DNA from: an uncultured delta proteobacterium
GTDB lineage: Bacteria; Desulfobacterota; Binatia; Binatales; Binataceae
DNA length: 64,000 nucleotides
Reading direction: 5' to 3'
NCBI GenBank assembly: GCA_963711565.1
Contig: CAVQEQ010000002.1
Location: 192,001-256,000, forward strand
Made by a program: the position numbers and the translations under genes. The notes beneath the pieces are model-generated. The model did not search any database and had not been told where the DNA came from. It saw nothing but the letters and a program-made list of their open reading frames with translations. Shown here in pieces: positions 4,664 to 64,000 of the stretch. Each line of letters starts with the position of its first letter. Position 1 is the stretch's first letter.

Positions 4664-4677
4664 GATGGGTCGCCCCC

Positions 4678-5883: not shown

Positions 5884-6060
5884 GGTGAGTCGTCCTTGTG
5901 GGTTAATTTCATTTTCATCGCGCCGCATCGATTGCACTGCACCTCTGCGGGCTGCGCGCACTACCAAGCAATGGCAATGCCACCGGTGCGGATCTATACA
6001 ATCGCGCGTGTTTTCATGCAGCCGACATGCATCAACGCGACTGCACGCAGTCCCGCCATG

Positions 6061-7281
6061 TCACTTGAGCGCCATCTCGAGACGGCTCAGCCCGCGCAGG
6101 AAATACGAGCCCTTGTAGGTCACAGGGGCGTCGGGATTTTTCAGCCGAAGATGCGGGAATCGTTCGAGCGCGCTGCCGATCGCGATCGCACCTTCCATCC
6201 GTGCGAGCGGCGCGCCGATACAGAAGTGGATTCCCTCGCCGAATGCCACGTGATCGTTTGGCGTGCGCGTGATGTCGAACTTCTCGGGATCCTTGAATTG
6301 CGCCGGGTCGCGATTCGCCGCCGCTGTGATCACGAACACCCCCATTCCCGATGCGATCGGCGTCCCGCCGACGGTAGTATCTCTCGTCGCGGTGCGGAAC
6401 GTTGATTGCACAGGCCCGTCGTAGCGCAGCATCTCCTCGATCGCGCCGCGCATCAGATCGGGCTTTGATTGCAGCGCCGCCATCGACGCGGGGTTGCGCC
6501 CCAGCGCGAGCATCCCGTTGCCAATCAGATTGGTCGTCGTCTCGTTGCCGGCGAGCAGCAAGAGCACGACGAACTGCAACAGCTCGTCGGCGCTCAGCGC
6601 TTCGGCCTCATCGTGCGCCGCGACGAGCGCGCTCACTAAGTCCGTCCCCGGATTCTTGCGCCGCCGCGCGATCTCGGCGAGGAAGTATGCCCTCAGTTCG
6701 GCGAAGGCGCTCTTGATTTCGTCGGGGATCGGCATTCCGGGGAGAGTGTTGTCCGCTTCGATTATCTTGTCCGACCAATGTTTGAATTGGCGGTATTCCT
6801 CGTGCGGCACGCCGAGCAAGTCGCTGATCACCATCACCGGCAGCGGGTTGGCGAGATCCGCCATCACGTCGAACTCGCCCTTGCGTTCGGCGGCGTCGAT
6901 TAGATTTTTGGCGATCTCGCGGATGCGCGGTTCCAGTTCGCGGATTCGGCGCGGGGTGAAGTCGCGCGAGACCAGCCGGCGCAGCCGCGTTTGCGTCGGG
7001 GGATCGGAGCCGAGCATCGTCGGGGCGTCACCGAATACTTTCGTCTGCTCGTCGAATCCCATCCCGGCCGGCTGGACACTCAAGAAGGTCGCATGGTCCA
7101 TCAGGATCGCGCGCACGTCGGCATAACGAGCGGCCAGCACGAATTTGAATCCCATGTCGATAATTCGGGGCGGTCCCGCCAGCAGCGGGCGGTAATGCGG
7201 ATACGGATTAGCGCGGAAGTTTTCGTCCCACGGATTAAAGTAGATGTCCTGTGCGGCCTGCGTCTCGATTGATCCGCTCAT
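6061..7281 (-). CDS. Cytochrome P450 (copy 1)
   Basis: AGNETTT, EEMLR, FGEGIHFCIG. Start MSGSIETQ, just after the TetR stop. Confidence 0.96.
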   Translation of the reverse strand: MSGSIETQAAQDIYFNPWDENFRANPYPHYRPLLAGPPRIIDMGFKFVLAARYADVRAILMDHATFLSVQPAGMGFDEQTKVFGDAPTMLGSDPPTQTRLRRLVSRDFTPRRIRELEPRIREIAKNLIDAAERKGEFDVMADLANPLPVMVISDLLGVPHEEYRQFKHWSDKIIEADNTLPGMPIPDEIKSAFAELRAYFLAEIARRRKNPGTDLVSALVAAHDEAEALSADELLQFVVLLLLAGNETTTNLIGNGMLALGRNPASMAALQSKPDLMRGAIEEMLRYDGPVQSTFRTATRDTTVGGTPIASGMGVFVITAAANRDPAQFKDPEKFDITRTPNDHVAFGEGIHFCIGAPLARMEGAIAIGSALERFPHLRLKNPDAPVTYKGSYFLRGLSRLEMALK

Positions 7282-7286
7282 TGCAC

Positions 7287-7925
7287 TCACCTTCCGTTTG
7301 TCGAATGGTTCGAATCCAGGTCGCGCACCATCGCGGCGCACACCCGCTTGGTCGTTTCCAACGCGCGCACAAACTCGGGCGTATCGATTTCGCCGTCAAG
7401 CAGGACGCGCTCAAGAGCCAATGACTCGAGTTGCCCGAAGACGATTCCCATCAAATCGTGCAGTTCGATTTCGCGGCCAGGCGGCCAGTCGAGAATCGCC
7501 CTGAGTCCCAGTTCAAAGCCATGTCCAAAGCGCTCGCTGGCGGCGCGCACCGCGTCGTTGAGCGCGGGATCGGTGCGGCTGGCGACGACCAGCTCCAGCC
7601 ATGCGTAGAAGGTCACTCCCTTGAACATCGGCCACATCGCATCGATAAGGACGGCGACGCGATGCTCGCGATTTCCGGGCGGCGGCTCGGCGATTGCGGC
7701 GCTCATTTCGGCGAGCCGCAGCTCGAACACATGCTCGAGCGCACTGACGACGAGCTCGTCTTTTTTCGGAAAATGATGCAGCTGCGCGCCGCGTGAGACT
7801 CCGGCGCGGCTGGCGATTTCGGTCGTCGTCGTGCCCGCGTATCCACGCTCGAACAGGCAGGCGACGGTAGCATCGAGCAGCCGTCGTCGAGTCTCAGCAC
7901 TGCGCTCTTCTTGTAGGGCAGACAT
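7287..7925 (-). CDS. TetR/AcrR family transcriptional regulator
   Basis: N-terminal HTH GYAGTTTTEIASRAGVSRGAQLHHFPKKDEL. Confidence 0.95.
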   Translation of the reverse strand: MSALQEERSAETRRRLLDATVACLFERGYAGTTTTEIASRAGVSRGAQLHHFPKKDELVVSALEHVFELRLAEMSAAIAEPPPGNREHRVAVLIDAMWPMFKGVTFYAWLELVVASRTDPALNDAVRAASERFGHGFELGLRAILDWPPGREIELHDLMGIVFGQLESLALERVLLDGEIDTPEFVRALETTKRVCAAMVRDLDSNHSTNGR

Positions 7926-49428: not shown

Positions 49429-49564
49429 TAGCCAAATATATCAGTTTCGCGGAGAACCCTGAATTAAATCTGCGAGCCGAAGTGGTGGCGAGTGAATCTG
49501 TTGCATCGACTGGCGAATTTCCTTGACGGCAGTGGGGCTATGCTGGGACTATAGATTCGCAAAT

Positions 49565-49619
49565 GGTGATGGGGTTCACCGATTAACCGCTCTCTGTTTC
49601 AGAGGCTGATGACCCCTGC
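49565..49619 (+). ncRNA. Fluoride (crcB) riboswitch 1
   Basis: GGTGATGGGGTTCACC-gattAACCGC-tctctg/cagag-GCTGATGACCCCTGC: P1, pseudoknot GGGGT/ACCCC and the conserved core. Confidence 0.93.
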
Positions 49620-49644
49620 GGAAAAAGCCGTAGGGGTTTATTTT
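49612..49644 (+). terminator. Expression-platform terminator of riboswitch 1
   Basis: ACCCCTGCGG-aaaaag-CCGTAGGGGT followed by TTATTTTT; overlaps the aptamer 3' end. Confidence 0.85.
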
Positions 49645-49686
49645 TGGAAGAGCGCCAGGGTTTCTTCAATAAGAGGATACGATACC

Positions 49687-51360
49687 ATGCCTGAAAATCT
49701 TAGAAGTAAGACGATTACCGAGGGCGTCCAACGTTCACCGAATCGGTCAATGCTGCGCGCCGTTGGCTTCACCGACAGTGATTTTCAGAAGCCAATTATC
49801 GGTATCGCCAACGCGTACAGCACGATCACCCCATGCAACATAAGTCTGAACGTACTCGCGCAGCGCGCAGAGTCCGCACTCAAGACGTCGGGTGCGATGC
49901 CGCAGGTATTCGGCACCATCACGGTTAGCGATGGCATAGCGATGGGAACCGAGGGCATGAAGTACTCGCTGGTATCGCGCGAGGTGATCGCGGATTCCAT
50001 CGAGACGGCGTGCAGCGCTCAGTCGATGGACGGCGTAGTTGCGATCGGCGGTTGCGACAAGAACATGCCGGGCTCGATGATGGCGATCGCGCGGATGAAT
50101 ATTCCAGCGATCTTCGTTTACGGTGGAACGATCAAGCCGGGACACTACAACGGCCGCGATCTGACGATCGTGAGCGCCTTCGAAGCAGTCGGGGAATTCA
50201 GCGCTCACAAGATCGGCGAGAAAGAATTGCTCGAGGTCGAGCGCCGCGCGTGTCCTGGGGCGGGTTCGTGCGGCGGGATGTATACCGCCAACACAATGTC
50301 GTCGGCGATCGAGGCGATGGGCATGAGCCTGCCGTATTCGTCAACGATGGCGGCCGAAGATTCCGAGAAGGCCGACAGTGCCGCGAAATCGGCGCAAGCC
50401 GTTGTCCAGGCGGTGCGCACGCAATTGCTGCCGCGACAAATCATGACGCGCAAGGCGTTCGAGAATGCGATCTCAGTCGTGATGGCGGTGGGAGGATCGA
50501 CCAACGCCGTACTCCATCTGCTCGCGATGGCTCACACGGCTGAAGTGCCGCTGACTATCGACGACTTCGAGACGATTCGTCAGCGCGTACCGGTCCTGTG
50601 CGACATGAAGCCGTCGGGGCCTTACGCCACGACTGACTTGCACCGCGCGGGCGGGATCCCGCAGGTGATGAAAATGCTCCTGAACCGAGGGCTGCTGCAC
50701 GGTGACGCGATCACCATCACCGGAAAAACGATTGCGGAGAATCTGGCCGAAGTCCCCGATGCGCCGGGTACGGATCAGGCGGTCATTCATCAGTGGAATA
50801 AGCCGGTCTATCCGCAGGGTCATCTGGCAATCATGCGGGGGAACCTGGCAACTGAAGGCGCCGTCGCAAAGATCACCGGGATAAAGAGCCATCACATTAC
50901 GGGACCGGCACGAGTGTTCGAAAGCGAGGAAGACTGCCTGAGTTCGATCCTCGCGGGCAAGATCAAAGCCGGTGACGTGGTCGTGATTCGCTACGAAGGG
51001 CCGAAGGGCGGACCTGGGATGCGCGAGATGCTGTCACCGACCTCGGCGATCATCGGCGCCGGGCTCGGCGATGCGGTCGGACTCATAACCGACGGCCGTT
51101 TCTCGGGCGGTACCTATGGTTTGGTTGTGGGACACGTCGCCCCGGAAGCACAGGTGGGCGGACTGATCGCGCTGGTGCACGAAGGGGACTCGATCACGAT
51201 CGATGCGAACAAACATCTGCTTACGCTGAATGTGCCCGAAGCCGAGATCGCGCGGCGCCGGTCCGAATGGCGAGCGCCTAAGCCCCGATACACCCGAGGC
51301 GTGCTGGCGAAGTACGCGGCTCAAGTGTCATCGAGTAGCATCGGGGCCGTGACGGACTAA
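49687..51360 (+). CDS. ilvD: Dihydroxy-acid dehydratase
   Basis: [52 protein letters not shown]. Confidence 0.96.
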
Positions 51361-51412
51361 CGGGGTCGCCGCACATAGCCCTCTAACCGCGTGGGCATAG
51401 AAGTGTCCTTGG

Positions 51413-52946
51413 ATGACCTTCCACAGCATACTCTTCGAAGGTGCTAGCAACGGTGTCTCGGCGGTACGACCAGCCGCGCCCGATTCTTTTGTCGATCTCA
51501 ATCTCGATCAGGTCGTGGCCGCTATCACCGCCGGCAAGGAAGAATATGACCTGAAACCTTTTTTCTATGCCTCCCTGCATGACGCCGACGCGATCAACTA
51601 CCGGCAGGAGGTCATGCAAGCGCTCGAAGAATGTTCCTCTCGCCGATAGCATCAGGGCCTTCGCCGCGCAGATGCATTCGATGCGGCAGTATCTGGCTCA
51701 ATCCGAGGAACTCGCGGGTCGCCAGAAAGAGCGATGGTTCCTCGATGCTGTCGATATCTATTGCGACGGGGTGACAGAACTGGTCAACAACCTATCGACT
51801 ACAGACCTGACGTCGCGTGGGCTCCTGGCTTTTCGGGAGTACGCGACCCAGTATGCTGCATCCGATCCCTTCGCGCGGCTCTTGAAGGAAACGAAAGAGC
51901 TTAAGTCCGCTCTCGCTTCAATCGAGTACTGCGTCCTTATCAACAGTCCCAACGTCCAGGTCCGCAAATACGAGGGCGAGCCCGACTACAGTGCGGATGT
52001 CCAGTCAACCTTCGAAAGGTTCAAGCAGGGTACGGTCACGGACTACAACTTCAAGTTTTTCGATTCACCTAAAATGGACCACATCGAGGAGAAGATTTTC
52101 GACCTGGTCACCCGGCTCTATCCCGAAATATTCAGTCGACTGCAATCTTACTGCGCGAGCCACAAAGATTATCCAGACTATGCGATCTTCACGTTCGACA
52201 AGGAGATCCAGTTCTATGTCGCCTACCTGGAGCATATCGCGCGATTCAAAAACGCCGGGTTGGATTTCTGTTATCCGCGAATGGACAGGACCTGCAAGGA
52301 AGTTTACAGTTCTGCGGGCTTCGATCTCGCGTTGGCCGGCGCTCTTATAAGTGAACGGGCCATCCCTGTGAGCAATGACTTTCATCTCAAGGATCGCGAG
52401 CGGATGATCGTCGTCTCCGGTCCGAATCAAGGTGGCAAGACGACCTTTGCCCGTACCTTCGGGCAGTTGCACTATCTGGCGAGCCTCGGCTGTCCGGTGC
52501 CGGGAAAAGAAGCGCGCCTGTTTCTCTTCGACCAGATCTTTACGCATTTTGAACGAGAGGAAAATGCAAACAACCTGCGCGGCAAGCTACAGGACGATCT
52601 CCTTAGAGTGCATCAAATTCTCGAGCGCGCAACCCCTGACAGCATCATCATCATGAATGAGATTTTCACCTCCACTACACTGCAAGACGCCGTCGTTCTC
52701 AGCAAGAAGATTGCCGCCAGGATAATGAAATTGGACCTCCTGTGCGTATGGGTGACGTTCGTCGAAGAGTTGGCGTCATTGAGCGAGCAGACCCTGAGCA
52801 TGGTCAGTACTGTAGTGCCCGAGAGTCCGGCGCTGCGGACTTATAAGATTGTCAGGCGCCCCGCCGACGGGCTTTCCTACGCAATGTCGATCGCGGAGAA
52901 ATATCGGGTCACATACAAGACGCTCAAGGAACGACTCGGCTCGTGA
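51413..52946 (+). CDS. MutS domain V-only ATPase A (frameshift near 51628)
   Basis: MTFHSILF...DLNLDQ...YRQEVMQALE joins NVPLADSIR after a one-base shift. Walker A GPNQGGKT, THFERE, GKLQDDL, IIMNE. Confidence 0.85.
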
Positions 52947-54439
52947 AGGCGCATCTCCTGTACAGGGATCATGATTTCGATTTGGAGCGGCCGTTGCCCT
53001 GGAATGAAGTCGCACTGGTTAAGGATCTGTCGCTGAGCACTCTGTTCGCCGCGATGGCGCGGGGCGACCAGTTGGTCTCTGAAGTCAGCAAGCGAGTTAT
53101 CCTGCTGGGCTTCGATAACGGCCTCGAGACGATTCGCTATCGCCAGAGCGTTTTGCGGGACTGCCTCAACCAACCGTTCGTTGTCCGCGAGCTTTACGCG
53201 GTCGCAGTCGATGCGATGGAGAAGCAGAAGAGGCACTATCTTGGAATCTTCGCCCGCTACCCCGACTCGGTCCTTCGCCATTCGATCGAACTGATGGAAA
53301 CCTTCCTCAGCATGCTGAAGACCCTGCGGAAGATCACGGATTCGCACGCTGACAAGTTCGTTTCAGAGGGATGGACGGCGTTTTACGCGATGTTGCGGCG
53401 TGAGCTTGATGACGACTATTTTGCTCTCGTCGAGAATCACCTGGAACGATTGAAATTCCGCGGTGGGGTATTACTCAGCGCCAGGCTGGGTAAGGGGAAC
53501 AAGGGCGATCCCTATGTCCTCCGTGAACCGCCCTATCGAAAAGAAACGTTCCTGACGCGGCTCTTCCGACAACAATCGTCTGCTTACAGCTTCACGCTCC
53601 ATCCACGCGAAGAAAGTGGATTCAGGGCGCTATCAGAGTTACGAGACCGAGGGATAGGACTTGTCGCCAATGCGCTGGCCCGATCTACCGGACACGTGCG
53701 CAGTTTTTTCGACATGCTGCGGACGGAGCTAGCCTATTATGTGGGTTGCGTGAACCTGCACGAGGAGCTTAACCGAAAGAGAGTTTCGATGTCTTTTCCG
53801 TCGCTCGCAACCGCGGATGAGCGCAGGCTGTCCTTTCAGGGATTGTGCGATGCCTGCCTGGCGCTGAACATGGAGCAGCGGATAGTCGCCAACGACGCCG
53901 ACGCTGACAAGCGAACCGTTGTGTTCGTCACCGGCGCCAACCAGGGCGGCAAATCGACTTTTCTACGAAGCATAGGATTGGCCCAGTTGATGACGCAGTG
54001 CGGAATGTTCGTGTCCGCCGAGTCGTTATGCTCCAGCATCCGCGATGGACTCTTCACCCATTACAAAAGGGAGGAAGATACCGCCATGAAAAGCGGCAAG
54101 CTCGACGAGGAGCTCAGCCGCATGAGTGACATCGTTGACCATATCACTCCGCATTCCATGATCCTGTTCAATGAGTCCTTTGCGGCGACCAACGAGCGCG
54201 AAGGCTCGGAGATTGCCGGCCAGATCATATCCGCGCTCCTGGAAAAGCGGGTCAAGATTGTTTTCGTGACCCACCTTCATGAGTTAGCCCGCGCCTTCTA
54301 TGAGAGAGACAAGGCCGAGGTCTTGTTCTTACGGGCGGAAAGGCAGACCGACGGTGTCCGAACTTACAAGTTGCTCGAAGGAGAGCCGCTCCAGACCAGC
54401 TTCGGTGACGACTTGTACCAAAGCATTTTTGATGGCTAA
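52943..54439 (+). CDS. MutS domain V-only ATPase B
   Basis: GANQGGKST, THYKREED, SGKLDEEL, ILFNESF, FVTH; overlaps the stop of the partner gene. Confidence 0.9.
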   Translation: MKAHLLYRDHDFDLERPLPWNEVALVKDLSLSTLFAAMARGDQLVSEVSKRVILLGFDNGLETIRYRQSVLRDCLNQPFVVRELYAVAVDAMEKQKRHYLGIFARYPDSVLRHSIELMETFLSMLKTLRKITDSHADKFVSEGWTAFYAMLRRELDDDYFALVENHLERLKFRGGVLLSARLGKGNKGDPYVLREPPYRKETFLTRLFRQQSSAYSFTLHPREESGFRALSELRDRGIGLVANALARSTGHVRSFFDMLRTELAYYVGCVNLHEELNRKRVSMSFPSLATADERRLSFQGLCDACLALNMEQRIVANDADADKRTVVFVTGANQGGKSTFLRSIGLAQLMTQCGMFVSAESLCSSIRDGLFTHYKREEDTAMKSGKLDEELSRMSDIVDHITPHSMILFNESFAATNEREGSEIAGQIISALLEKRVKIVFVTHLHELARAFYERDKAEVLFLRAERQTDGVRTYKLLEGEPLQTSFGDDLYQSIFDG

Positions 54440-56190
54440 CCTTCGAGCGTTGAAGGATGGTCCGACGCCGGCTTGACCTTTGCGCGAAGACGCTCCAGAC
54501 GTTCGAGACTCGATTTGACGGCCTCGGTTCCGGCAGCGCGCGTGGCCTCGGCGCGAGCCAGTGTGCTTTCGGCGGTGGTGCGCAATTCATTGAGCATGCC
54601 GCGGATCTCCGCCTCCAGGCGGCGCCCGCTCTCACGAACGATCACGTCGAAATCGTTCAGAATTCTTGTGCTGTTGAGCGACAGCAACGTGACCAGATAT
54701 CGCGCGACTTTCTTTTCGACGATTTCCAGCTGGCTGCGCCGGGTCCTGAAGATTCCGATGATCCGCTCCGCGACCGTCTGCCGCGGAAAACCGAAATGCT
54801 CGCCGAAGTAGAGCTTGCCCTTCACACGGAACCCGGACTCCTCGCTCACCGCCGACGGCAAATCAGACAGAAGCGAATCGCCGGACTCGGCAACCCGCTT
54901 CAGAAAATCGTTGGCGAGCTGCACGAAGCGGTGGGCGGACTCGCGGTACATCGCCTCGGCGGCGGGACGCTCCTCTTCGAGCCATTGATTGAGCAGCCGG
55001 CGTGAAATGGATTGCGCGATCTCCGTCGCGCAGTCATAAAGTGGCGACCCGCGCCCTTCGGTCGCTTGAGCGATTGCCTCGTGAAACTCTTGGCGGGCAG
55101 CCGGGATTGTGCGAGCAAGAAAGCTGTCGCGACGCTCGGTGCATCGGCGACTGACCCGTTCTTGCTCGGCCTTGAACAAATGGCTCAGATCGCCAAGCGA
55201 ACGTTCGGCGTCGGCGATCACCTCCCGCAGGCGTGACGCGATACGCTGCGACTCTTCAGCCGGCGCAATCAGCGCGTCGTGGAGGTTGTCGATTTCGCGG
55301 AGCAGGTTGCCGGTGAGCCGCTGGATGCCGCGGTTCTCCGCCGCTTCCACGAGGGCCGGGCCGGATTCGCGCGCGAGCCGTTCAAGCTCTGCCAACAGGG
55401 CCGGACCGTCGCGCGATGGACCCGCGGCGTTCAGCCATTCGGCTGCGCTGACCTGGAACACGCGTCCCACCTCGCGCTTGATCTTCTGGGCCAAAGTACG
55501 TCGCGCAAATTCAATCGCCTCGCTACACTCACTGGCGGTGAGGCGGTCCGCCTTGCTGAGCACGAACACTATCTCCTGCAGCTGGGATGCGAGCTCTTCA
55601 AGAAGAATTAGTTCCTCACCCGATATCGGCGGATCGGCGCCAAGCACGATCAGGGCGGCGTCGATGTGAGGAACGAAAGCCCTGGTGACCGCAGTATTGC
55701 CGGCGAAGACTGAGCCGATACCGGGCGTGTCCACGAGGCACATGCCGGAAGCAAGCAGCGCAGCGGGCACAAAAACTTCGACGGCGGCGACACCTCGAGA
55801 GTTTTCCGGGTTGCGCTCCTCGGAGACGTAGTCGGAGGTAGATTGCACCGAGACCTGCTGGCGCGATCCGTTTTCGAAGTGAACTTCAGCGTGAAGAATA
55901 GGCCCATACCGAACGATGGTTACGATCGCAGTGACGGGCACGACGCCGGTGGGCAGGACGGAGGTTCCGATCAACGCATTGAGGAGGCTCGACTTGCCGC
56001 GTTTGAACTGGCCGAGACAGGCGACAAAGAAGCGCTTATCGGCAACGCGCTCGGCCAGCGCGCGGGCCTCGCGCTCGACGCGCTGGCTATCCAGCTCGCT
56101 CGCGACGTCAATTAACGATAGGAGCGGAAGATGGCGCGAGATTCGTGCGTTACCCGCGAACTTCCCGGATGTATATTGCTCTTCGGGCAA
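54436..56190 (-). CDS. Dynamin-like GTPase
   Basis: G1 GQFKRGKS, G2 PVT, G3 DTPG, G4 SKAD; long helical C-terminus. Confidence 0.9.
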   Translation of the reverse strand: MPEEQYTSGKFAGNARISRHLPLLSLIDVASELDSQRVEREARALAERVADKRFFVACLGQFKRGKSSLLNALIGTSVLPTGVVPVTAIVTIVRYGPILHAEVHFENGSRQQVSVQSTSDYVSEERNPENSRGVAAVEVFVPAALLASGMCLVDTPGIGSVFAGNTAVTRAFVPHIDAALIVLGADPPISGEELILLEELASQLQEIVFVLSKADRLTASECSEAIEFARRTLAQKIKREVGRVFQVSAAEWLNAAGPSRDGPALLAELERLARESGPALVEAAENRGIQRLTGNLLREIDNLHDALIAPAEESQRIASRLREVIADAERSLGDLSHLFKAEQERVSRRCTERRDSFLARTIPAARQEFHEAIAQATEGRGSPLYDCATEIAQSISRRLLNQWLEEERPAAEAMYRESAHRFVQLANDFLKRVAESGDSLLSDLPSAVSEESGFRVKGKLYFGEHFGFPRQTVAERIIGIFRTRRSQLEIVEKKVARYLVTLLSLNSTRILNDFDVIVRESGRRLEAEIRGMLNELRTTAESTLARAEATRAAGTEAVKSSLERLERLRAKVKPASDHPSTLEG

Positions 56191-56199
56191 GGGATTTTC

Positions 56200-56730
56200 T
56201 TACCTGTCAGACTTGCGCGATGCTCGGGCGATTGCATCGCTGATGTACTCGAAGGTCTCGTCGAGTTCCATCCAGTGAGAGATTTTCTTCCGATCGCCTT
56301 CTTCAAGGTCCTTGTAGTGATTGAAGAAATGGCTGATCTGCTCATATAGAATGGCCGGGAGATCGGCCAGGGTGCGAACATTTATGTAGTAGGGGTTCAA
56401 TCTGTCCACGGGGACGGCGATGATCCTCTGGTCGTCGTCTTCCATCGCAAGCCCACCGATCGGGCGGGATCGAACGACCGCGAGCGGGACAATTGGGACC
56501 TGCGAGACGACCAGCACGTCGCACGGATCCCCATCGCGACACACAGTGTGCGGAATGAATCCGTAATTGGCGGGATAGTGCATCGGGGTATGCAGGAACC
56601 TGTCCACGAACAGCGAACCTGAAGCCGGATCGAACTCGTACTTGATCGGCGCGCCCTCTTGAGGAATCTCGATTATCACGTTGACCTCGGACGGAGGGTT
56701 GTCGCCGATTGAAATTTTGCGGATATCCAT
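56200..56730 (-). CDS. ppa: Family I inorganic pyrophosphatase (divergent)
   Basis: IEIP, KYE, VDRFL, YPANYGFIPHT, DGDPCD, YKDLE. Start MDIRKI preceded by GGGAG. Confidence 0.9.
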   Translation of the reverse strand: MDIRKISIGDNPPSEVNVIIEIPQEGAPIKYEFDPASGSLFVDRFLHTPMHYPANYGFIPHTVCRDGDPCDVLVVSQVPIVPLAVVRSRPIGGLAMEDDDQRIIAVPVDRLNPYYINVRTLADLPAILYEQISHFFNHYKDLEEGDRKKISHWMELDETFEYISDAIARASRKSDR

Positions 56731-56763
56731 AAAAAAACTCCCACGGCGCCGCGCCGCAGGAGT
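56731..56763 (-). terminator. Expression-platform terminator of riboswitch 2
   Basis: ACTCCTGCGGCG-cgg-CGCCGTGGGAGT followed by a T run; the stem also contains the ppa RBS. Confidence 0.85.
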
Positions 56764-56809
56764 CATCGGCCGCTCGACGAGAGCGGCAATTTTGGTGGAC
56801 TCCACCACC
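56756..56809 (-). ncRNA. Fluoride (crcB) riboswitch 2, G-C variant
   Basis: GGTGGTGGAGTCCACC-aaaattGCCGC-tctcgtcgagcg-GCCGATGACTCCTGC; pseudoknot GGAGTC/GACTCC. Confidence 0.85.
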
Positions 56810-56856
56810 TTCGAGATCAAACTAGCAGAGCGATCGGTGCGCAGCCAAGCTTTCAC

Positions 56857-57183
56857 TCACTCCAGAAGATTGGGCAGAAGACCGCGGCGAAAAGCAGTGG
56901 CGAAGTCATAAAGGGCATCGGGCATAATAACGGACATCAGAAGAGAATCGGCGAATGAGACTCCCCAGAGTTTGGTAGCGGCTGAGGCGTGCCACGGATA
57001 GCAGAACACGATGCGACGCTCTCGGAGAATGACCAACGCGGTCATAGCCTTCGCGAGCGGGCATCGGCTGTCGGCGTCTTCCAGCGAACCGGGCGGAAAC
57101 GATTCGAGCGGCGGTTCGCCGATTTCGCGTCTTACGGCGTTGACGAGACGCAGCGCCGAGGTAACCAGTTCCGTATATTCCAT
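56857..57183 (-). CDS. Hypothetical protein (108 aa) under riboswitch 3
   Basis: MEYTELVTSALRLVNAVRREIG...RCPLAKA...FATAFRRGLLPNLLE; GGAG directly upstream of the ATG. Confidence 0.7.
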   Translation of the reverse strand: MEYTELVTSALRLVNAVRREIGEPPLESFPPGSLEDADSRCPLAKAMTALVILRERRIVFCYPWHASAATKLWGVSFADSLLMSVIMPDALYDFATAFRRGLLPNLLE

Positions 57184-57205
57184 GACTCCGCGATCAATCG
57201 CGATC

Positions 57206-57260
57206 CAGGAGTCATTGGCCCGGCCCGGCGGCCTAAGCGGGTTCGGCGGACTCCACCGCC
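57206..57260 (-). ncRNA. Fluoride (crcB) riboswitch 3, G-C variant, translational
   Basis: GGCGGTGGAGTCCGCC-gaacccgcttagGCCGCC...GGGCCAATGACTCCTG; a TATTGT -10-like hexamer lies 4 nt upstream. Confidence 0.78.
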
Positions 57261-57365
57261 GTCTACAATAGAGATATCCGGTTTGGCGTGACGGTGAATT
57301 GGTCTTAACCGTATTGACCATCACCTTTGGTGATCTTACCTCAATCTCTGGCAAACTGGATGCCG

Positions 57366-57983
57366 ATGACGAAAATTATCTTGATCCGCCACGGTAACGT
57401 GGAAGGTCTTAAGCCCGAGCGCTTTCGCGGACGCGCCGATCTCGAGCTGACGCCATTTGGTGTGGCCCAAGCCACCGCTACTGCTCAGAGGATCGCGGCG
57501 GCGTGGCACCCCTGCGCCATCTTTACAAGCCCTCTACGCCGATGCGTTTCGACCAGCAGGCCGATTGCCGACGCTTGCGGAGTACCCAGTGAGACGATCG
57601 ACGGACTTGTCGACCTCGACTACGGCGCTTGGCAGTGGAAAACTCACGACGAAGCGCGGCGCGAATCGCCGCAGCTATTCGACGCATGGCGCAGTGCGCC
57701 GCAGCTGGTCCGTTTTCCAGAGGGTGAATCATTGCAAGATCTGGTCGCGCGAACGTCAGACGCGTTGCGGTTCGTGCTGAACAAATACGCCGGGAACACC
57801 GTCGTTCTCGTCGGACATGACAGTGTCAACAAGGCTCTGCTCCTGCAGCTCATAGACCAGCCCCTCTCCGCCTATTGGCGCCTCGCGCAGGACTGTTGCG
57901 CAATCAACGAAATCGACATCGAGGAGACCACGATACGGGTGTCCCGGATCAACGAAACGCATCACCTCATTGGCGTGACCTGA
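57366..57983 (+). CDS. Histidine phosphatase (phosphoglycerate mutase) family protein
   Basis: LIRHG, SPLRRC, DYGAWQ, FPEGES, VGH. Confidence 0.92.
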   Translation: MTKIILIRHGNVEGLKPERFRGRADLELTPFGVAQATATAQRIAAAWHPCAIFTSPLRRCVSTSRPIADACGVPSETIDGLVDLDYGAWQWKTHDEARRESPQLFDAWRSAPQLVRFPEGESLQDLVARTSDALRFVLNKYAGNTVVLVGHDSVNKALLLQLIDQPLSAYWRLAQDCCAINEIDIEETTIRVSRINETHHLIGVT

Positions 57984-58057
57984 ATCGCAAACGCGAGCCC
58001 CAATGCTTCGCGGCGTTGACTCCCGAGCCAGATAGGTTATTTGATATAGTCGCAGAC

Positions 58058-58112
58058 GGTGATGGGGTTCCGCCGCTAACCGCTCCCGCTTGAGTGAGCT
58101 AATGACCCCTAC
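58058..58112 (+). ncRNA. Fluoride (crcB) riboswitch 4
   Basis: GGTGATGGGGTTCCGCC-gctAACCGC-tc...gaGCTAATGACCCCTAC, upstream of DUF190-crcB. Confidence 0.93.
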
Positions 58113-58181
58113 TCTGGTGTTGAGCACAGGTAGGGGCTTTTCTTTTGAAAGGGCTCTGCCGAAAGGTAGAGGGCCTTTTTT
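58106..58181 (+). terminator. Two tandem terminator-like hairpins after riboswitch 4
   Basis: CCCCTAC...GTAGGGG-CTTTTCTTTT, then CTCTGCC-GAAA-GGTAGAG...CCTTTTTT. Confidence 0.75.
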
Positions 58182-58272
58182 GATCGCAGCAGCTTGCAAT
58201 TTGCTACGCTCTCGGAAGAACCGTTCGCAGGGGCGGGCCTGCGCTTTCACAACGCCAGGAGGGCAGTGATCG

Positions 58273-59553
58273 ATGTTCACCGGAAGGGCCAAGCAGGTGA
58301 CGATCTTCATCGGCGAAACGGACCAATATCATCACCAGGCGCTGTACATGACGATCATCGAGATGCTCCGGCGTGAGGGATGCAGCGGTGCGACCGCCAC
58401 TCGGGGCGTTGCCGGGTTTGGGGCTTCATCGATGATTCACACGGCGGCTATCCTTCGGCTGTCCTTCGATCAGCCAATCGTGATCACGGTCGTGGATCGC
58501 CCCGAGCGGATCGATCGCATTCTCGGTCCGCTGCGCGAAATGGCTCCCAGCGCCCTCATCACGGTTCAGGAGGTTGAAGTCGTCCAATCGGGTGCTCCCT
58601 TCAAAGAGGGTCTACCCGACCTGAAGGTCTCGGAAGTGATGCGCCGAGAGGTCGCGACAGTGCATGCCGACAGTCCAATCACCCAGGTTATTGAGCTGCT
58701 GCTCGATAAGGACTTCACTGCGGTGCCTGTCGTCGACGACCAGGGCAAGGTGGTCGGGATGGTGAGCGACAACGATCTGCTCTTGCGCGGTGGGATGAAC
58801 GTCACGATTAGCTTGAAAAAGGCCACCGATTTGGACTACGTGCGCGAGCTTCACGAGTCGCTCGAGAACCCGAACCGTAAAGTGTCTGAGGTGATGACGC
58901 GCGAGGTCGTGACGACTGCTCCGGATACCATTCTCGCCCGAGCGGCCAGAGTGATGGTCGATAAACATCTCAAGCGCCTGCCGGTCGTGGACGGCGACGG
59001 AAAGTTGGTGGGTATCCTTGGACGCCTGGACGTGTTGAACACGATCGCGGCGGTCCATCTGCCTGAGTGGCATCCCGAGGCGCATGCCGTCGGGGCGCAG
59101 GCTACGGTGGCCGAGGTGATGAGCCGTGACGTTCCCACCGTCCATGAAAATGCCACGGTGGAACAAATTTTCGATCTGCTCGTTTCGTCAACGCACAAGC
59201 GCGTGATCGTCGTGGACGACAAGCGGCATGTAGTCGGGATCGTCGCCGACTCGGATCTCATTTCCAAAGTGAGCCGTGAGAGCTGGCCGGGGGTAATGGA
59301 AATCCTCATCTCGAAGGTCCCGCTCGGCCGGGCCAGCGTGGAGGCGCGCAAGCACATTCAGAAGTTGCGCGCCCGTTTCGCAAAAGACCTGATGACGCGT
59401 GATGTGGTTACGGTTCGCGAGAAGATGCCGGTCGCCAGCGCCTTGGCGCTCTCTGCGGAAAAGCGGGTTAAGCGGCTGCCTGTGGTCGACGGCGACGGTG
59501 AGTTGGTTGGAATCGTCGGCCGCACCGAGATGTTGAGGGCGTTGCTCGCCTGA
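58273..59553 (+). CDS. DUF190 (PII-like) + 4xCBS domain protein
   Basis: N-terminal IFIGETD...GATATRGVAGFG...LSFDQPIVITVVD (DUF190), then two CBS pairs (VPVVD, KRLPVVD). Confidence 0.9.
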   Translation: MFTGRAKQVTIFIGETDQYHHQALYMTIIEMLRREGCSGATATRGVAGFGASSMIHTAAILRLSFDQPIVITVVDRPERIDRILGPLREMAPSALITVQEVEVVQSGAPFKEGLPDLKVSEVMRREVATVHADSPITQVIELLLDKDFTAVPVVDDQGKVVGMVSDNDLLLRGGMNVTISLKKATDLDYVRELHESLENPNRKVSEVMTREVVTTAPDTILARAARVMVDKHLKRLPVVDGDGKLVGILGRLDVLNTIAAVHLPEWHPEAHAVGAQATVAEVMSRDVPTVHENATVEQIFDLLVSSTHKRVIVVDDKRHVVGIVADSDLISKVSRESWPGVMEILISKVPLGRASVEARKHIQKLRARFAKDLMTRDVVTVREKMPVASALALSAEKRVKRLPVVDGDGELVGIVGRTEMLRALLA

Positions 59554-59580
59554 AGAAGAGGAGGAGGGATTCGGCGGCTG

Positions 59581-59952
59581 ATGGGAGTGTTGTTTGTCGC
59601 GGTAGGCGGAGCCATCGGATCCGTCACTCGCTATCTGGTCGGTGGATGGATTGCCGCTCGTTTTGGCAGTGCTTTTCCATACGGGACGCTGGTAATCAAT
59701 GTCACCGCGAGTTTCATCATCGGCTTTTTCCTGGCGTTCGCTCAGGAGCGAGTGAGCTTGAATCCGAACTGGCGCCTTTTTGTCGCGGTCGGATTCGTTG
59801 GCGGTTACTCGACGTTCTCGACCTTCGAGTATGAGGGGATTCGATTATTGCAGGAGCGGGAGATGCTGGTCGGTTCGGTCTATCTCATTGGGAGTGTGAT
59901 CGCGGGCGGCGTAGCCGCGATAGGCGGGATAGCACTCGGCAGTTGGGTTTGA
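59581..59952 (+). CDS. crcB: Fluoride channel Fluc/CrcB
   Basis: GGAIGSVTRY, FPYGTLVINV, GFVGGYSTFSTF. Confidence 0.95.
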   Translation: MGVLFVAVGGAIGSVTRYLVGGWIAARFGSAFPYGTLVINVTASFIIGFFLAFAQERVSLNPNWRLFVAVGFVGGYSTFSTFEYEGIRLLQEREMLVGSVYLIGSVIAGGVAAIGGIALGSWV

Positions 59953-59972
59953 TTTCGGCGAGCGGGCTTGAG

Positions 59973-60000
59973 TTGACTGTGATAAAAGCACTGCTAAACT
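59973..60000 (+). promoter_or_regulatory. Sigma70-type promoter
   Basis: TTGACT-N16-TAAACT with an extended TG, 15 nt upstream of riboswitch 5. Confidence 0.55.
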
Positions 60001-60015
60001 TCTGTTGACAGAGTT

Positions 60016-60072
60016 GGTGATGGGGTTCACCGCCGCAACCGCCCTTTCCTGAGCAGGGCTGATGACCCCTAC
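60016..60072 (+). ncRNA. Fluoride (crcB) riboswitch 5
   Basis: GGTGATGGGGTTCACC-gccgcAACCGCCCT...AGGGCTGATGACCCCTAC, followed by the hairpin ACCCCTACC...GGTAGGGGT-TTGATT (60065-60100). Confidence 0.93.
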
Positions 60073-60205
60073 CGAGGCGTAAGCTGGTAGGGGTTTGATT
60101 AGTTCGGATTCCCTACCTGGTCATTGGAACTCTCGCGCGCGGGTCGCGCCTGCCGGAGATCATCGCGCGAGAAATAACGCCGCGCAGGAAAGAGCGTAGC
60201 GGACG

Positions 60206-61156
60206 ATGGCGCGTTCGATCGGGTTCAACCTGCTTCAGGTGCTGTTCGTGGTGGCGCTCGCCCCGCTGGTGGCGGGGGTGTTGTCGCGTCTGAAAGAGAT
60301 CGTGCAATCGCGGCGCGGTCCCAGCGTTTTCCAGCCGTATCGCGACCTTCGCAAGCTATTCAATAAAGACGAAGTCGTCTCGGAGCAGGCTTCCTGGATT
60401 TTCCGCGTGACGCCTCACGTCGTCTTTGTCGCGCCGATCTTCGTCGCCACGCTGATTCCCGTTCTAACCAGCTATCCGCTCTTCTTCGCGTTCATGGGCG
60501 ACATGCTGGGCGGAGGGTTTGTGCTGGCATTGGGCGGCTTCTTCGCGACGCTCGCGGCTGTGGATACAGCCAATCCTTACGGTCCGATGGGCGCGAGCCG
60601 CACGCGCATGGTCGGCTTCCTGGCTGAGCCGGTCTTCATGATCGTTTTTTTCACCGTCTCGTTCGTTGCGGGCTCCACCATTCCCTACATCGTTCAGCAG
60701 CATTGGGTCACTCCGCTGTCGAACTTCTTCGCGCCGTCGCATGTGCTGCTGGTGATCGCCTTCGTGATGCTCATTCTTGCTGAAGCCGGGCGGATCCCAG
60801 TTGACAATCCAACCGGTCATTTCGAGCTCGCGATGATCGACGAATCGAAAAGTCTCGAGTACTCGGGCACCGGCATGGCGCTGATGAAATGGGGCGGTCA
60901 GATGAAGCTGCTGGTGCTGATGTGCATTCTGCTCAACGTACTGGTTACCCCGTGGGGACTGGCAAGCGACAAGAGCACTCTTGAGGTCCTTTTGGCGGGA
61001 CCGCTCGTGTTGTTCAAAATCGGGCTCTTCCTATTGGTGTTGGTGGTGATTGAATCCTCGCTGTCCAAACTGCGGCTCTTTCGGGTCAGCGAGTTCCTGG
61101 GGGCTGCGTTCGTAACCTCGGTGGTCGCGATGATCACCGGACTCCTGAACTTCTAG
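60206..61156 (+). CDS. hyfC: HyfC/HycD (NuoH-like) membrane subunit
   Basis: SRRGPSVFQPYRDLRKLF, GASR, EAGRIPVDNP..HFELAMI. Confidence 0.88.
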   Translation: MARSIGFNLLQVLFVVALAPLVAGVLSRLKEIVQSRRGPSVFQPYRDLRKLFNKDEVVSEQASWIFRVTPHVVFVAPIFVATLIPVLTSYPLFFAFMGDMLGGGFVLALGGFFATLAAVDTANPYGPMGASRTRMVGFLAEPVFMIVFFTVSFVAGSTIPYIVQQHWVTPLSNFFAPSHVLLVIAFVMLILAEAGRIPVDNPTGHFELAMIDESKSLEYSGTGMALMKWGGQMKLLVLMCILLNVLVTPWGLASDKSTLEVLLAGPLVLFKIGLFLLVLVVIESSLSKLRLFRVSEFLGAAFVTSVVAMITGLLNF

Positions 61157-61164
61157 GGGCTGAG

Positions 61165-61845
61165 ATGGCGAACTCCTACGCGCTCCTGACTTCGCTGAAC
61201 GGACTGGCTGCGGGGCTGTTTCTGATGAGTTCGTTCGGGCTTGCGGCGACGCGGCAGATGCAGGGGTGCCAGCGATTCTATATCACTGAGTCGATCTGCC
61301 TCGTGGTGTCCGCGCTATTGCTCGGCATTGGCTTGCACGCGCCCGACCTGCTGGCGGTCGCCGCGCTCGACGCGATAATGAAGCCCATCGTGATTCCGTA
61401 TCTGCTTAAGCGCACGGTGCCTGAGGAGATTTTCAGAAGACGTGAGATCGATCAGGTCCTGAACATTCCCAGTTCGCTGCTGATTGCGCTTGCCCTGACC
61501 TTGCTTGCCTTCTACCTGAGCGGATTTCTCCCGCCCGCAGCCGGAAGCATTGCGGCAATCAATTTGCCCGTCGGGCTCGCCGGACTGTTTATCGGAGTCT
61601 ACACGCTCACGGTGCGGCGCGAGGCCGTCCCGCAACTGATTGGCATCTTCGGCATCGAGAATGGCGCTCTGCTTTGCGGCTTCGCCATCGCGCCCACTTT
61701 GCCACTGGTCATTGAGATGGCTTTCCCGTTCGACATGCTGATCATCGCGCTCGTGATCGGAATCTTGACGCGGATAACGCAGGAACGAGTGGGAACGACC
61801 GAAGTCGGCGCGTTCGCAGCGCTCAAGGAAGGCGCCAGCAAATGA
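61165..61845 (+). CDS. hyfE: HyfE-like membrane subunit
   Basis: KPIVIPYLL, QLIGIFGIENG, IEMAFPFD. Confidence 0.85.
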   Translation: MANSYALLTSLNGLAAGLFLMSSFGLAATRQMQGCQRFYITESICLVVSALLLGIGLHAPDLLAVAALDAIMKPIVIPYLLKRTVPEEIFRRREIDQVLNIPSSLLIALALTLLAFYLSGFLPPAAGSIAAINLPVGLAGLFIGVYTLTVRREAVPQLIGIFGIENGALLCGFAIAPTLPLVIEMAFPFDMLIIALVIGILTRITQERVGTTEVGAFAALKEGASK

Positions 61846-63290
61846 TACTGCTTGCCATCCTTGCCGTGCCGCTGATTGCCGCGCTGCTCTCGTGCTTGCC
61901 AGTCGGACGCCGGGTAGCGCCGGCGGTCACACTGACATCCTGCACGGTCGTGCTCGCGATGGTGATAGCAGCGGCGATGGGCGTGGTCGCTCGGGGCTCA
62001 GTTGTCGCAATTGCCAATTGGGTCTCTATCGACGGCCTGAGTGCGTTGATTCTGCTGCTGGTCGCGACGATCGGGAGCACCGCCGCACTTTTCTCGTGGG
62101 GTTACATGGCGCACGAACCGAGCACGCCGCATCTGCGCCGTTACTACGCGAATTACAATCTGTTCGTCTTCGCGATGCTCTCGGTGCCCATGCTGGCGGA
62201 GCCGAACCTGGTTTGGACGGGAGTGGAAATGACGACCATCCTCTCCGTTTACCTTATAGCGTTCGAGAATACGCGCGAGGCACTGGAAGCCGCGTGGAAG
62301 TACTCGGTGTTGACGATCATGGGAGGAGCGATAGCACTCCTCGGGTTTCTGGCGCTGTTCGCCGCGACACGGGGTCAGTACCCCGGCGGCGCCTATACAT
62401 GGCAGACGCTGATCGAGTTGGCGCCGCGAGTTTCGCCGGGCGTGCTCGCGACCGCCTTTGTTCTGATCCTTGTGGGGTTCGGTGCAAAGGCCGGGTTGGT
62501 TCCATTGCACACCTGGCTACCCGACGCGCACAGTCAGGCGCCGAGTCCAATCTGCGCGCTGCTCTCCGGCATCAAGACCACCGTCATCCTGTACGTAATA
62601 TTGCGCCTGGTGCCGGTGCTTAACGCCTCGGGAAAGGTCGACGTCGATGGATGGGCAATGGTCGTTGGGCTGTTTTCGGTAGGTATCGCGGCGTTTCTCA
62701 TCATCCAGGTAACCGACTATAAGCGCCTGTTCGCATTCTCCACGGTCGAACACATGGGCATTATCCTTACCGCCGCCGGCATCGGCGGCGCCGCCGGGCA
62801 CTACGGCGCGGTGTATCAAATACTCAATCACGCACTGACAAAGTCATTCTGTTTCTTCGCGGCCGGAGCAACTCTGCTCGTCGTCGATACACGACAGATA
62901 GCTGAAGTGCGGGGTTTGATACGAACCTCACCGTCGGCCGGCGCTGCCCTGCTATTCGGAGGAATCGCGATCGCCGGGGCGCCACCGCTCGCAGTGTTCC
63001 TGAGCGAATTCTCGATTCTGCGCTCCGGAATGGCGGAGCAACACTACCTTGCAAGCGGCTTGCTCGCCGCGTTCGTTATCGTCGCCTTTTTCGGAATTCT
63101 CTATCACCTTAATCTTATGGTCTTCGGACAAGCCTCGTCGCCCACCGTCGATAGCATTCCGGTAAGACTGCCGCGAAGCTGCGTGCTGACCCTTATTCTG
63201 GCCGCAGCGCCAATCATCATACTCGGGGTCTATATGCCGGAGCCGCTTCACAGGCTGCTCGAGATGGCGGCCGACGGCCTGTCGAGGTGA
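61842..63290 (+). CDS. hyfF: HyfF-like proton-translocating antiporter subunit
   Basis: EALEAAWKY, GFGAKAGLVPLHTWLPDAHSQAPSP, KRLFAFSTVEHMG. Confidence 0.9.
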   Translation: MILLAILAVPLIAALLSCLPVGRRVAPAVTLTSCTVVLAMVIAAAMGVVARGSVVAIANWVSIDGLSALILLLVATIGSTAALFSWGYMAHEPSTPHLRRYYANYNLFVFAMLSVPMLAEPNLVWTGVEMTTILSVYLIAFENTREALEAAWKYSVLTIMGGAIALLGFLALFAATRGQYPGGAYTWQTLIELAPRVSPGVLATAFVLILVGFGAKAGLVPLHTWLPDAHSQAPSPICALLSGIKTTVILYVILRLVPVLNASGKVDVDGWAMVVGLFSVGIAAFLIIQVTDYKRLFAFSTVEHMGIILTAAGIGGAAGHYGAVYQILNHALTKSFCFFAAGATLLVVDTRQIAEVRGLIRTSPSAGAALLFGGIAIAGAPPLAVFLSEFSILRSGMAEQHYLASGLLAAFVIVAFFGILYHLNLMVFGQASSPTVDSIPVRLPRSCVLTLILAAAPIIILGVYMPEPLHRLLEMAADGLSR

Positions 63291-63293
63291 ACG

Positions 63294-64000
63294 ATGCCCG
63301 TCGTACTGACTCAAGTGGTCGAGGAGGCCAGGGCACGCTGGGCCGGCAGAGTTAGCGCGACTATCAATGATCGCGTCGATTCCGCGTGTCAGCTTGAATG
63401 TGAACCGGCAGCTCTACCAGAGATTTGCGAGTGGTTGTTTTCAAGTCTGCGCTACAGTTTCGGCAGTCTTATCGTCGAGCAGCGAGCGCGATGGGACCTG
63501 CGATACGTCTTCTACGGCGAACATGACGCTGGTTGGGTGCACGCGCTTACTCATTCGTCCAGTTCCGAAAATCGTGTACCCAGCATCAGCAAACAGATTC
63601 ACGCCGCCGATTGGCACGAACGCGAGGTTGAGGACCTGTTTGGACTGGACTTCGAGGGACATCCGCGTCTCGGCGATTTCGTCCTTCACAATGACGCCTG
63701 GCAAGAGGGCGTCAATCCGATGCGCAAGAGCTTTGATGCGGCTCAGCCTGTACTGCATCGTGAGCCCGACCTGAATTGGAAGCCTCGCCAGATCGTCGAG
63801 GAGACCGGCTCTTTCCTCATGCCGGTAGGACCGGTCTTTTCCGCCGCAACCGGACCGGTACACTTTCAGCTCGAGACGGTCGGCGAGGATGTCATCCGCG
63901 CGTGGCCGCGCCTCTTCTACGCATACCGCGGTCTCGAGAAGATCGCCGAGGGCCGGCGGGCTGACGATGTCGTGCTTATAGCGGAGCGTATCAGCGGAAC
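63294..64000 (+). CDS. HyfG/HycE-like NuoC-NuoD fusion, Ehr large subunit (partial)
   Basis: Manual translation: MPVVLTQ...AADWHEREVEDLFGLDFEGHP...MPVGPVF...HFQLETVGE...LFYAYRGLEKIAEG...AERISG. Runs off the window end. Confidence 0.85.
   Translation, partial: MPVVLTQVVEEARARWAGRVSATINDRVDSACQLECEPAALPEICEWLFSSLRYSFGSLIVEQRARWDLRYVFYGEHDAGWVHALTHSSSSENRVPSISKQIHAADWHEREVEDLFGLDFEGHPRLGDFVLHNDAWQEGVNPMRKSFDAAQPVLHREPDLNWKPRQIVEETGSFLMPVGPVFSAATGPVHFQLETVGEDVIRAWPRLFYAYRGLEKIAEGRRADDVVLIAERISG

Follow-up and report, generated by a model that had tools for sequence, protein, structure and literature searches.

In a soil bacterium of an uncultured family, the gene for a 108-aa orphan protein directly follows a G-C variant of the crcB aptamer. 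On balance, this variant is best explained as a translational ON switch for fluoride, and the protein as a non-enzymatic accessory in the fluoride response of the island. The gene (protein P0001) occupies 57183-56857 on the minus strand, with its TGA stop codon at 56859-56857, of the window, by which we mean the whole stretch of 64,000 nucleotides analyzed here. The fluoride riboswitch class, translational control within it and fluoride islands are already known. What appears to be new is the G10-C38 aptamer variant, together with an uncharacterised protein family behind a fluoride-type switch. Fluoride riboswitches are a guide to resistance genes, and the one described here points to a small soluble protein without a family or a solved fold, which offers direct and inexpensive access to an uncharted part of the response. 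The findings are mostly confined to one uncultured family and are all computational.

The aptamer in front of the orphan ORF (core 57260-57207, minus strand) was identified from its sequence, from Rfam and with R1, a covariance model built from 26 G-C aptamers, none of which precedes the orphan. It has the 4-bp P1 of RF01734 (GGCG/CGCC, 57260-57257 with 57248-57245). The loop GGAGUC can form six Watson-Crick pairs with GACUCC (57254-57249 with 57213-57208), which gives the potential to pair as a pseudoknot. The A40-U48 linchpin (57215 and 57207) is retained, as it is in 15/15 orphan leaders and in 26/26 other G-C aptamers. The reversed Watson-Crick A10-U38 pair is replaced by G10 (57256) and C38 (57217), which covary, and the aptamer is therefore filed as a variant rather than as a canonical member of RF01734. 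The initial annotation had called a crcB-type fluoride switch at this position; the aptamer core is indeed there, but it is not the canonical A-U form, and the G10-C38 subtype had been overlooked.

Some copies of the fluoride aptamer escape default Rfam scans. The orphan-leader aptamer scores 23.6 bits against RF01734 (E 4e-4) and is missed because this falls below the gathering score of 34; a scan of the window at that score reports four fluoride riboswitches, this one not among them. Other G-C copies in the same island exceed the cut-off (36.9 and 34.4 bits). With R1, the window's orphan leader scores 48.6 bits, its relatives 48.8-49.6 bits and the second aptamer, before ppa, 68.5 bits. Across 15 orphan leaders, 93% of core cells are paired (P1 85%, pseudoknot 95.6%) and the bottom two P3 base pairs are always kept, while covariation within these leaders alone is no higher than in shuffles (325/500 reach it). 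In the window, mismatches interrupt P3 in its middle part, which is less paired than in the closest relatives (L010, L011, L002). A weak promoter-like element can be proposed at 57265-57292 (minus strand), with a -10-like TATTGT at 57270-57265 and a poor -35; it reaches an ad hoc score of 9, as do 1.85% of background positions, and is absent from a consensus promoter scan. One metatranscriptome holds a 169-nt contig, 100% identical and spanning 57141-57309 at depth 3, which could be DNA and is not taken as evidence. The subtype is found upstream of fluoride-mitigation genes, namely ppa and Na+/H+ antiporters, and the orphan itself lies within a crcB island. Judged from its sequence, the aptamer is likely an RF01734 variant predicted to work like the class, and the leader is very probably a functional riboswitch of the fluoride family.

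The distribution of the variant was determined with one degenerate pattern run over 165 family genomes and tallied by hand. The pattern gave 101 matches in 34 genomes, of which 56 carry G-C at positions 10 and 38, 44 A-U, one A-C and none G-U; without four unpublished family genomes, the counts are 51 G-C, 39 A-U and one A-C. In a phylum sample from which the window's own genome (G000) was removed, 104 matches in 81 of 400 genomes comprised 101 A-U, two G-C and one A-C. G-C aptamers occur in 20 of the 165 family genomes, and these include all 13 genomes that encode a close homologue of the orphan. The 26 other G-C aptamers, none of them in front of the orphan, have 99.5% of cells paired and two-sided changes in four pairs; their covariation exceeds that of all 500 shuffles, in sequences that are kin. 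No G-C aptamers were found in viral contigs. Among plasmids, 42 records matched, and of the six that were opened four held canonical A-U aptamers and two were not riboswitches. A natural G-C form of the fluoride riboswitch was not found among literature titles, and a set of 1901 assayed sequences may already include G-C variants. The literature search likewise found no link of the fluoride riboswitch to Binatota or to dynamin.

In the B. cereus fluoride riboswitch, the reversed Watson-Crick A10-U38 pair and the A40-U48 linchpin are described as forming upon fluoride binding (PMC10687018; PMC8004769). Pyrophosphatase, Na+/H+ antiporters and formate hydrogen lyase are listed among the commonest fluoride-riboswitch genes (PMC11139923) and, with enolase, appear as standard ones in several accounts (PMC11139923; PMC5533749; PMC2864571). 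G-C aptamers precede genes for pyrophosphatase (ppa), dynamin-like proteins, DUF6062-like proteins, an AAA ATPase and a proton-antiporter-type hydrogenase subunit and, outside the family, Na+/H+ antiporters (L069, L070). Since they stand before ppa and Na+/H+ antiporters, their putative ligand is probably still fluoride. In the Levitt pair of tRNA, a trans G-C can stand in for a trans A-U; by this analogy, the exchange of A10-U38 for G10-C38 is probably structurally conservative.

Alternatively, the G10-C38 aptamers could be a subclass that binds another ligand or responds at a markedly different fluoride threshold. That would make the island a two-tier regulon: the exporter, hydrogenase and ilvD would answer to A-U switches, and the orphan, ppa, dynamin and DUF6062-like genes to G-C switches. 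We consider this unlikely, though several observations point toward it: the covariation of positions 10 and 38 is near-perfect, both forms stand side by side in G000 (three of each), the downstream genes are mostly split by subtype, and the altered pair borders the ligand pocket as described for the known structure (PMC10687018). However, the two gene sets overlap, given that G-C aptamers precede Na+/H+ antiporters and a hydrogenase-type subunit and that an A-U aptamer precedes an antiporter in L071. The split may also just reflect descent by duplication within one island. Furthermore, fluoride is reportedly bound via Mg2+ and backbone phosphates, not bases, in the structure that Ren described in 2012. 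An extended version, which we would likewise not expect to hold, makes the G10-C38 form an undescribed subclass of shifted sensitivity or different anion as the second tier and the orphan a new-fold effector, with Arg99 possibly binding the anion or an acidic partner. A fluoride ligand for both forms remains the preferred reading. The G-C subtype amounts to a naturally occurring compensatory exchange in a tertiary pair that adjoins the ligand pocket, and its presence beside the canonical form in the same genome permits a clean comparison of affinity, selectivity and switching.

The arrangement downstream of the aptamer argues that the switch acts on translation, which we hold with good confidence. 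On the minus strand, the aptamer 3' strand ATGACTCC (57215-57208) is followed by an 18-nt spacer, by GGAGTCAT (57189-57182) and by the ATG (57183-57181). The complementarity of the two octamers had been pointed out in the initial annotation and is upheld by folding, in which their pairing is the helix of both the minimum free energy and the centroid structure; in a dinucleotide model, 0.044% of random 40-mers contain the 8-nt complement. The resulting OFF hairpin (57182-57215, minus strand), recognized from sequence and folding, buries GGAG and the AU of the start codon. The reported lack of a U tract is also confirmed: a terminator scan finds nothing after the first aptamer, its sole minus-strand match (56764-56736) lying past the second. 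None of 18 parsed orphan leaders has a U tract after the aptamer, and one is present for most aptamers situated just 3' of the ORF.

Platform geometry was compared over the 20 distinct close-homologue loci. Two layouts of the start region recur: eight loci are arranged as in the window, and in six others the hairpin is shorter and a GGAG or GGGG stands 6-7 nt ahead of the start. Because two different layouts both cover the initiation region, translational control is supported, and the earlier proposal of a translational platform holds in form. The optimal Shine-Dalgarno position is 5-9 nt before the start codon, and GGAG at 2 nt is a poor ribosome-binding site. In the window and seven similar loci, no more than 2 nt separate GGAG from the AUG, and what the stem blocks is therefore likely the start codon itself; the statement that pairing covers both elements thus stands, with the start codon now the likely target. 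In the free fold of the window leader, the unpaired fraction of GGAGUCAUG does not exceed 13%; withholding the aptamer strands raises that of the AUG to 67-99%. The OFF hairpin (-18.4 kcal/mol) is the strongest among the loci folded, and freeing the start costs 15.6 kcal/mol, a figure that leaves pseudoknot energy out of account. Given this strength, switching would have to be kinetic. An aptamer strand predicted to sequester the initiation region, with no U tract behind it, is the form expected of a translational platform. Without fluoride, the aptamer 3' strand is predicted to pair with GGAGUCAU and keep the start codon buried. With fluoride, a Mg2+/F- pocket would fix the pseudoknot in place by means of the A40-U48 linchpin and of G10-C38 as a substitute for A10-U38; the AUG would then be free and the orphan protein could be made.

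The association between orphan and aptamer extends across the close relatives of the gene. De-duplication of 33 rows left 20 distinct close-homologue loci, or 18 without the two from unpublished genomes (L027, L032); these loci are kin in one family, probably representing one mobile island, and do not count as independent events. An aptamer-like leader is located just before the start in all 20, detected by pattern in 18 and by eye in two. Four leaders are degenerate (L026, L013, L017, L027), and the ORF is nevertheless intact there. Of 19 orphan loci searched with R1, 16 have an upstream match, the exceptions being L005, L013 and L017, and it finds aptamers at none of 13 distant-homologue loci. 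In the close clade, homologues thus do follow crcB-type riboswitches, which is the check that the initial annotation had proposed. The orphan gene keeps its position even in homologues that have diverged to about 52% identity.

The pyrophosphatase gene ppa (56200-56730, minus strand; PF00719, NF002317) is likely controlled separately, by a second, transcriptional switch from its own promoter. That switch has a G10-C38 fluoride-type aptamer (56750-56818, minus strand), which accounts for the 36.9 bits above the Rfam cut-off, and an intrinsic terminator that overlaps it (56731-56764 from scan and sequence, minus strand). The 3' arm of the terminator contains GGGAG 7 nt before the ppa ATG. A putative promoter-like element at 56819-56848 (minus strand) consists of TTGGCT, 18 nt and TAGTTT with an upstream TG, and relatives have TTGCGC-16-TAAAAT or similar. 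On the ad hoc score, devised after the alignment was in view, 13 of 16 loci reach at least 9 at this place, compared with 4 of 15 for the first leaders and with a background rate of 1.85% of positions; the consensus promoter scan gave no match. The suggestion that ppa sits behind two riboswitches in series is not supported by these observations, given the separate terminator and the conserved promoter-like element that go with the second aptamer. Nor are the two aptamers a tandem riboswitch, since an ORF and the promoter-like element separate them. Transcription from the orphan promoter may read through into ppa. The orphan switch would reach ppa only indirectly, via polarity, because a translational switch does not gate transcription directly. 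The ppa of the window is an extra copy; another, 56% identical, is encoded on contig C3.

The orphan ORF is almost certainly a real protein-coding gene, as had been assumed. Its homologues number 24 by single-sequence search and 42 by profile, most of them 108-117 aa in length. When the window's gene is compared pairwise with 15 others, dN/dS falls within 0.08-0.28 for 14 of them, the remaining one being saturated. An AF2 model from 24 sequences is a compact alpha/beta structure with a pLDDT of 94.6. The stop-to-stop frame permits upstream starts that would give 155-165 aa (database entry P0002); the conserved in-frame ATG after the aptamer and the lengths of the homologues argue against these longer forms. 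The protein carries the motifs CPLAKA (residues 41-46) and FATAFRRG (residues 94-101). It is soluble and acidic (pI 5.4), with no transmembrane segment (maximum 19-residue hydropathy 1.19) and no obvious set of catalytic residues.

No known family claims this protein, in agreement with the initial annotation. Profile searches of Pfam, NCBIfam, PHROG and PADLOC match no family, the best PHROG hit being E 0.027 in 4 of 24 members. Foldseek against the PDB returned nothing at E<=0.001, and there is no PDB sequence match either. The best result of a VIA-wide fold comparison has Z 4.0 and rmsd 4.5 over 72 aligned residues, that among viral models is an uncharacterised Streptomyces phage protein (E 0.62, TM 0.43), and the ESM Atlas gave no usable match. 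This absence of fold matches does not prove a new fold. The lack of transmembrane helices and the compact alpha/beta model do not fit a Fluc/CrcB or CLC-F exporter. Fluc pore residues are Asn, Arg and Phe. The invariant N15, R18, F94 and F98 of the orphan were considered as Fluc-like pore residues and rejected, as distant homologues without aptamers keep them too.

Close homologues are present in 13 of 165 family genomes, two of which (G416, G553) are unpublished, and in one of 401 genomes of the phylum sample, G000 itself. Named homologue records belong to Candidatus Binataceae or an uncultured deltaproteobacterium. No relatives were found in the viral contigs, phage records or plasmids searched. 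A divergent wider family comprises 13 further loci in the family that keep N15, R18, P30, G32, P88 and the C-terminal F-x3-F. Residue 99 is R in 36/36 close rows and D in 7/9 distant rows. In the tree, a long branch parts the close rows from eight distant ones, but the long-branch row P0043 falls inside; for this reason, and as some rows counted as close lack genomic context, monophyly of the close clade is not claimed. Two distant members are fusions: in one, the orphan domain is joined to an HTH_17 domain (L091:1453-1995), and in the other a weakly matching domain is N-terminal to a RuvB-type ATPase and an Mrr nuclease (L097:1-1791).

We favour, with some reserve, a contribution of the orphan to fluoride tolerance. 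A role as a non-enzymatic partner is suggested by the small size and solubility of the protein, by invariant residues of seemingly structural character, by relatives that occur as modules in fusions, and by a gene position that is always next to dynamin or enolase genes where the flanks allow. Judged from gene order, the best guess is that it binds the dynamin-like GTPase or the enolase encoded beside it, as a partner or adaptor, an idea to be held only tentatively. It cannot be an obligate partner of either, because the window, L009 and L020 have no enolase upstream and because close homologues occur in a single one of the 401 sampled genomes. The orphan could instead be a passenger derived from a phage or mobile element, captured with a duplicated riboswitch and induced by fluoride while useless against it. 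In keeping with such an origin, the distant homologues are scattered in unrelated contexts without aptamers, one of them resembles unnamed phage-rich clusters (TM 0.52-0.62), and the gene is patchy in the family (13/165 genomes). This is nonetheless improbable in view of the purifying selection, of a position conserved to about 52% identity, of a platform rebuilt in two geometries that each cover the start region, and of the invariant R99 of the close clade against D in most distant homologues. It is still less credible that the family switch is real and that of the window decaying, its hairpin keeping the gene mostly off at any fluoride level: the P3 mismatches relative to L010, L011 and L002, the exceptional strength of the hairpin and the loss of the upstream enolase would fit, but P1, the 6-bp pseudoknot, G10-C38, A40-U48 and the ORF are all intact and the R1 score is like that of the relatives.

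The orphan gene is part of a larger fluoride island. Contig C2 has six fluoride-type aptamers within 18 kb, three A-U and three G-C (window 49556-64000, G000:C2:241556-266236). They precede ilvD, the orphan, ppa, a CBS-crcB pair, a hydrogenase-4-like operon and an operon of DUF6062-like, metallophosphoesterase, HEAT, dynamin and MFS genes; ilvD and ppa are second copies. The three canonical A-U aptamers, assigned by Rfam and profiles, are all on the plus strand of the window: one is followed by ilvD and two MutS_V-domain genes (49556-51360), one by a DUF190-CBS gene and crcB (58049-59952), and one by the first gene, of the NADHdh family, of an operon that we take, from its gene order, to be hydrogenase-4-like (60007-61156). 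A dynamin-like GTPase gene (PF00350) is at 54436-56190 on the minus strand. Divergent from the orphan, a histidine-phosphatase gene (57360-57983, plus strand; PF00300) takes the place that enolase has in most relatives.

Gene order at the orphan loci runs from enolase through the orphan and, where present, ppa to a dynamin-like GTPase. Enolase is directly upstream of the orphan in 16 of 20 loci; it is absent in the window, L009 and L020, and L005 stops at a contig end. The dynamin-like GTPase is the most constant neighbour, encoded downstream in 17 of 20, the other three having short flanks, and ppa adjoins the orphan in eight of 20. The enolase of L010 is internally deleted.

Comparison with known systems places the window's switch within an established framework. 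With RF01734 as first described (PMC2864571; Weinberg 2010), it shares P1, the pseudoknot, the base of P3, A40-U48, the location in a 5' leader, the ON logic via an overlapping platform and an island with crcB, ppa, enolase, MutS-like and hydrogenase genes. It differs in the G10-C38 pair, the sub-threshold score, a platform that buries the AUG and a downstream gene of no known family. Translational fluoride riboswitches are known from Burkholderia pseudomallei and Pseudomonas syringae, where, as described (PMC12667848), there is no intrinsic termination and control is exerted at translation initiation, as proposed here. Compared by description, the window's switch is set apart by its G-C subtype and by GGAG at 2 nt from the AUG. 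A known fluoride-induced island resembles that of the window in combining, by its published description, an exporter with spare fluoride-sensitive enzymes (pyrophosphatase, enolase and a phosphoglycerate-mutase-like enzyme). That island is described with one riboswitch, whereas the present one has six in 18 kb, of two subtypes, as well as dynamin-like, MutS_V and orphan genes. A recent preprint describes a cluster of aptamers that, like the window's, fall below the Rfam cut-off and have a putative Shine-Dalgarno platform. According to that description, its members precede crcB and 0/307 pass the cut-off, whereas several G-C aptamers of the present island do so; the two groups are set apart on this basis and may overlap.

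The island and its relatives contain further poorly characterized genes. Directly behind G-C aptamers, there are a Cys/His-rich DUF6062-like protein of about 275 aa and a protein of about 250 aa without a Pfam match (coordinates for these two types: L001:7957-8781; L076:3060-3821; L077:3460-4215; L075:2767-3507). The second dynamin-like GTPase of the island (L001:10497-12980) bears a C-terminal DUF6062-like part. A protein of about 587 aa, which combines a cluster of Cys residues at its N terminus with an AAA_16 ATPase domain, is encoded at L071:7060-8823 and L073:14268-16028, the latter copy having its own G-C aptamer. L073 (G477:C61:128265-154352) has eight aptamers in 26 kb, six G-C and two A-U, including one back-to-back divergent pair and one aptamer before a YkoP-domain gene. 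At L041:1501-2482, a G-C aptamer and terminator precede a SAICAR synthetase gene, the usual dynamin gene probably having been lost. A search near the island revealed neither a tRNA nor an integration site. Just beyond it in L012 (7075-8295), genes resembling a phage-type regulator and a conjugative pilin, noted by eye, hint at mobility. Elsewhere in the window, three tandem cytochrome P450-like genes lie beside a TetR-like regulator at 3470-7341 on the minus strand, as judged by eye from the ORF list.
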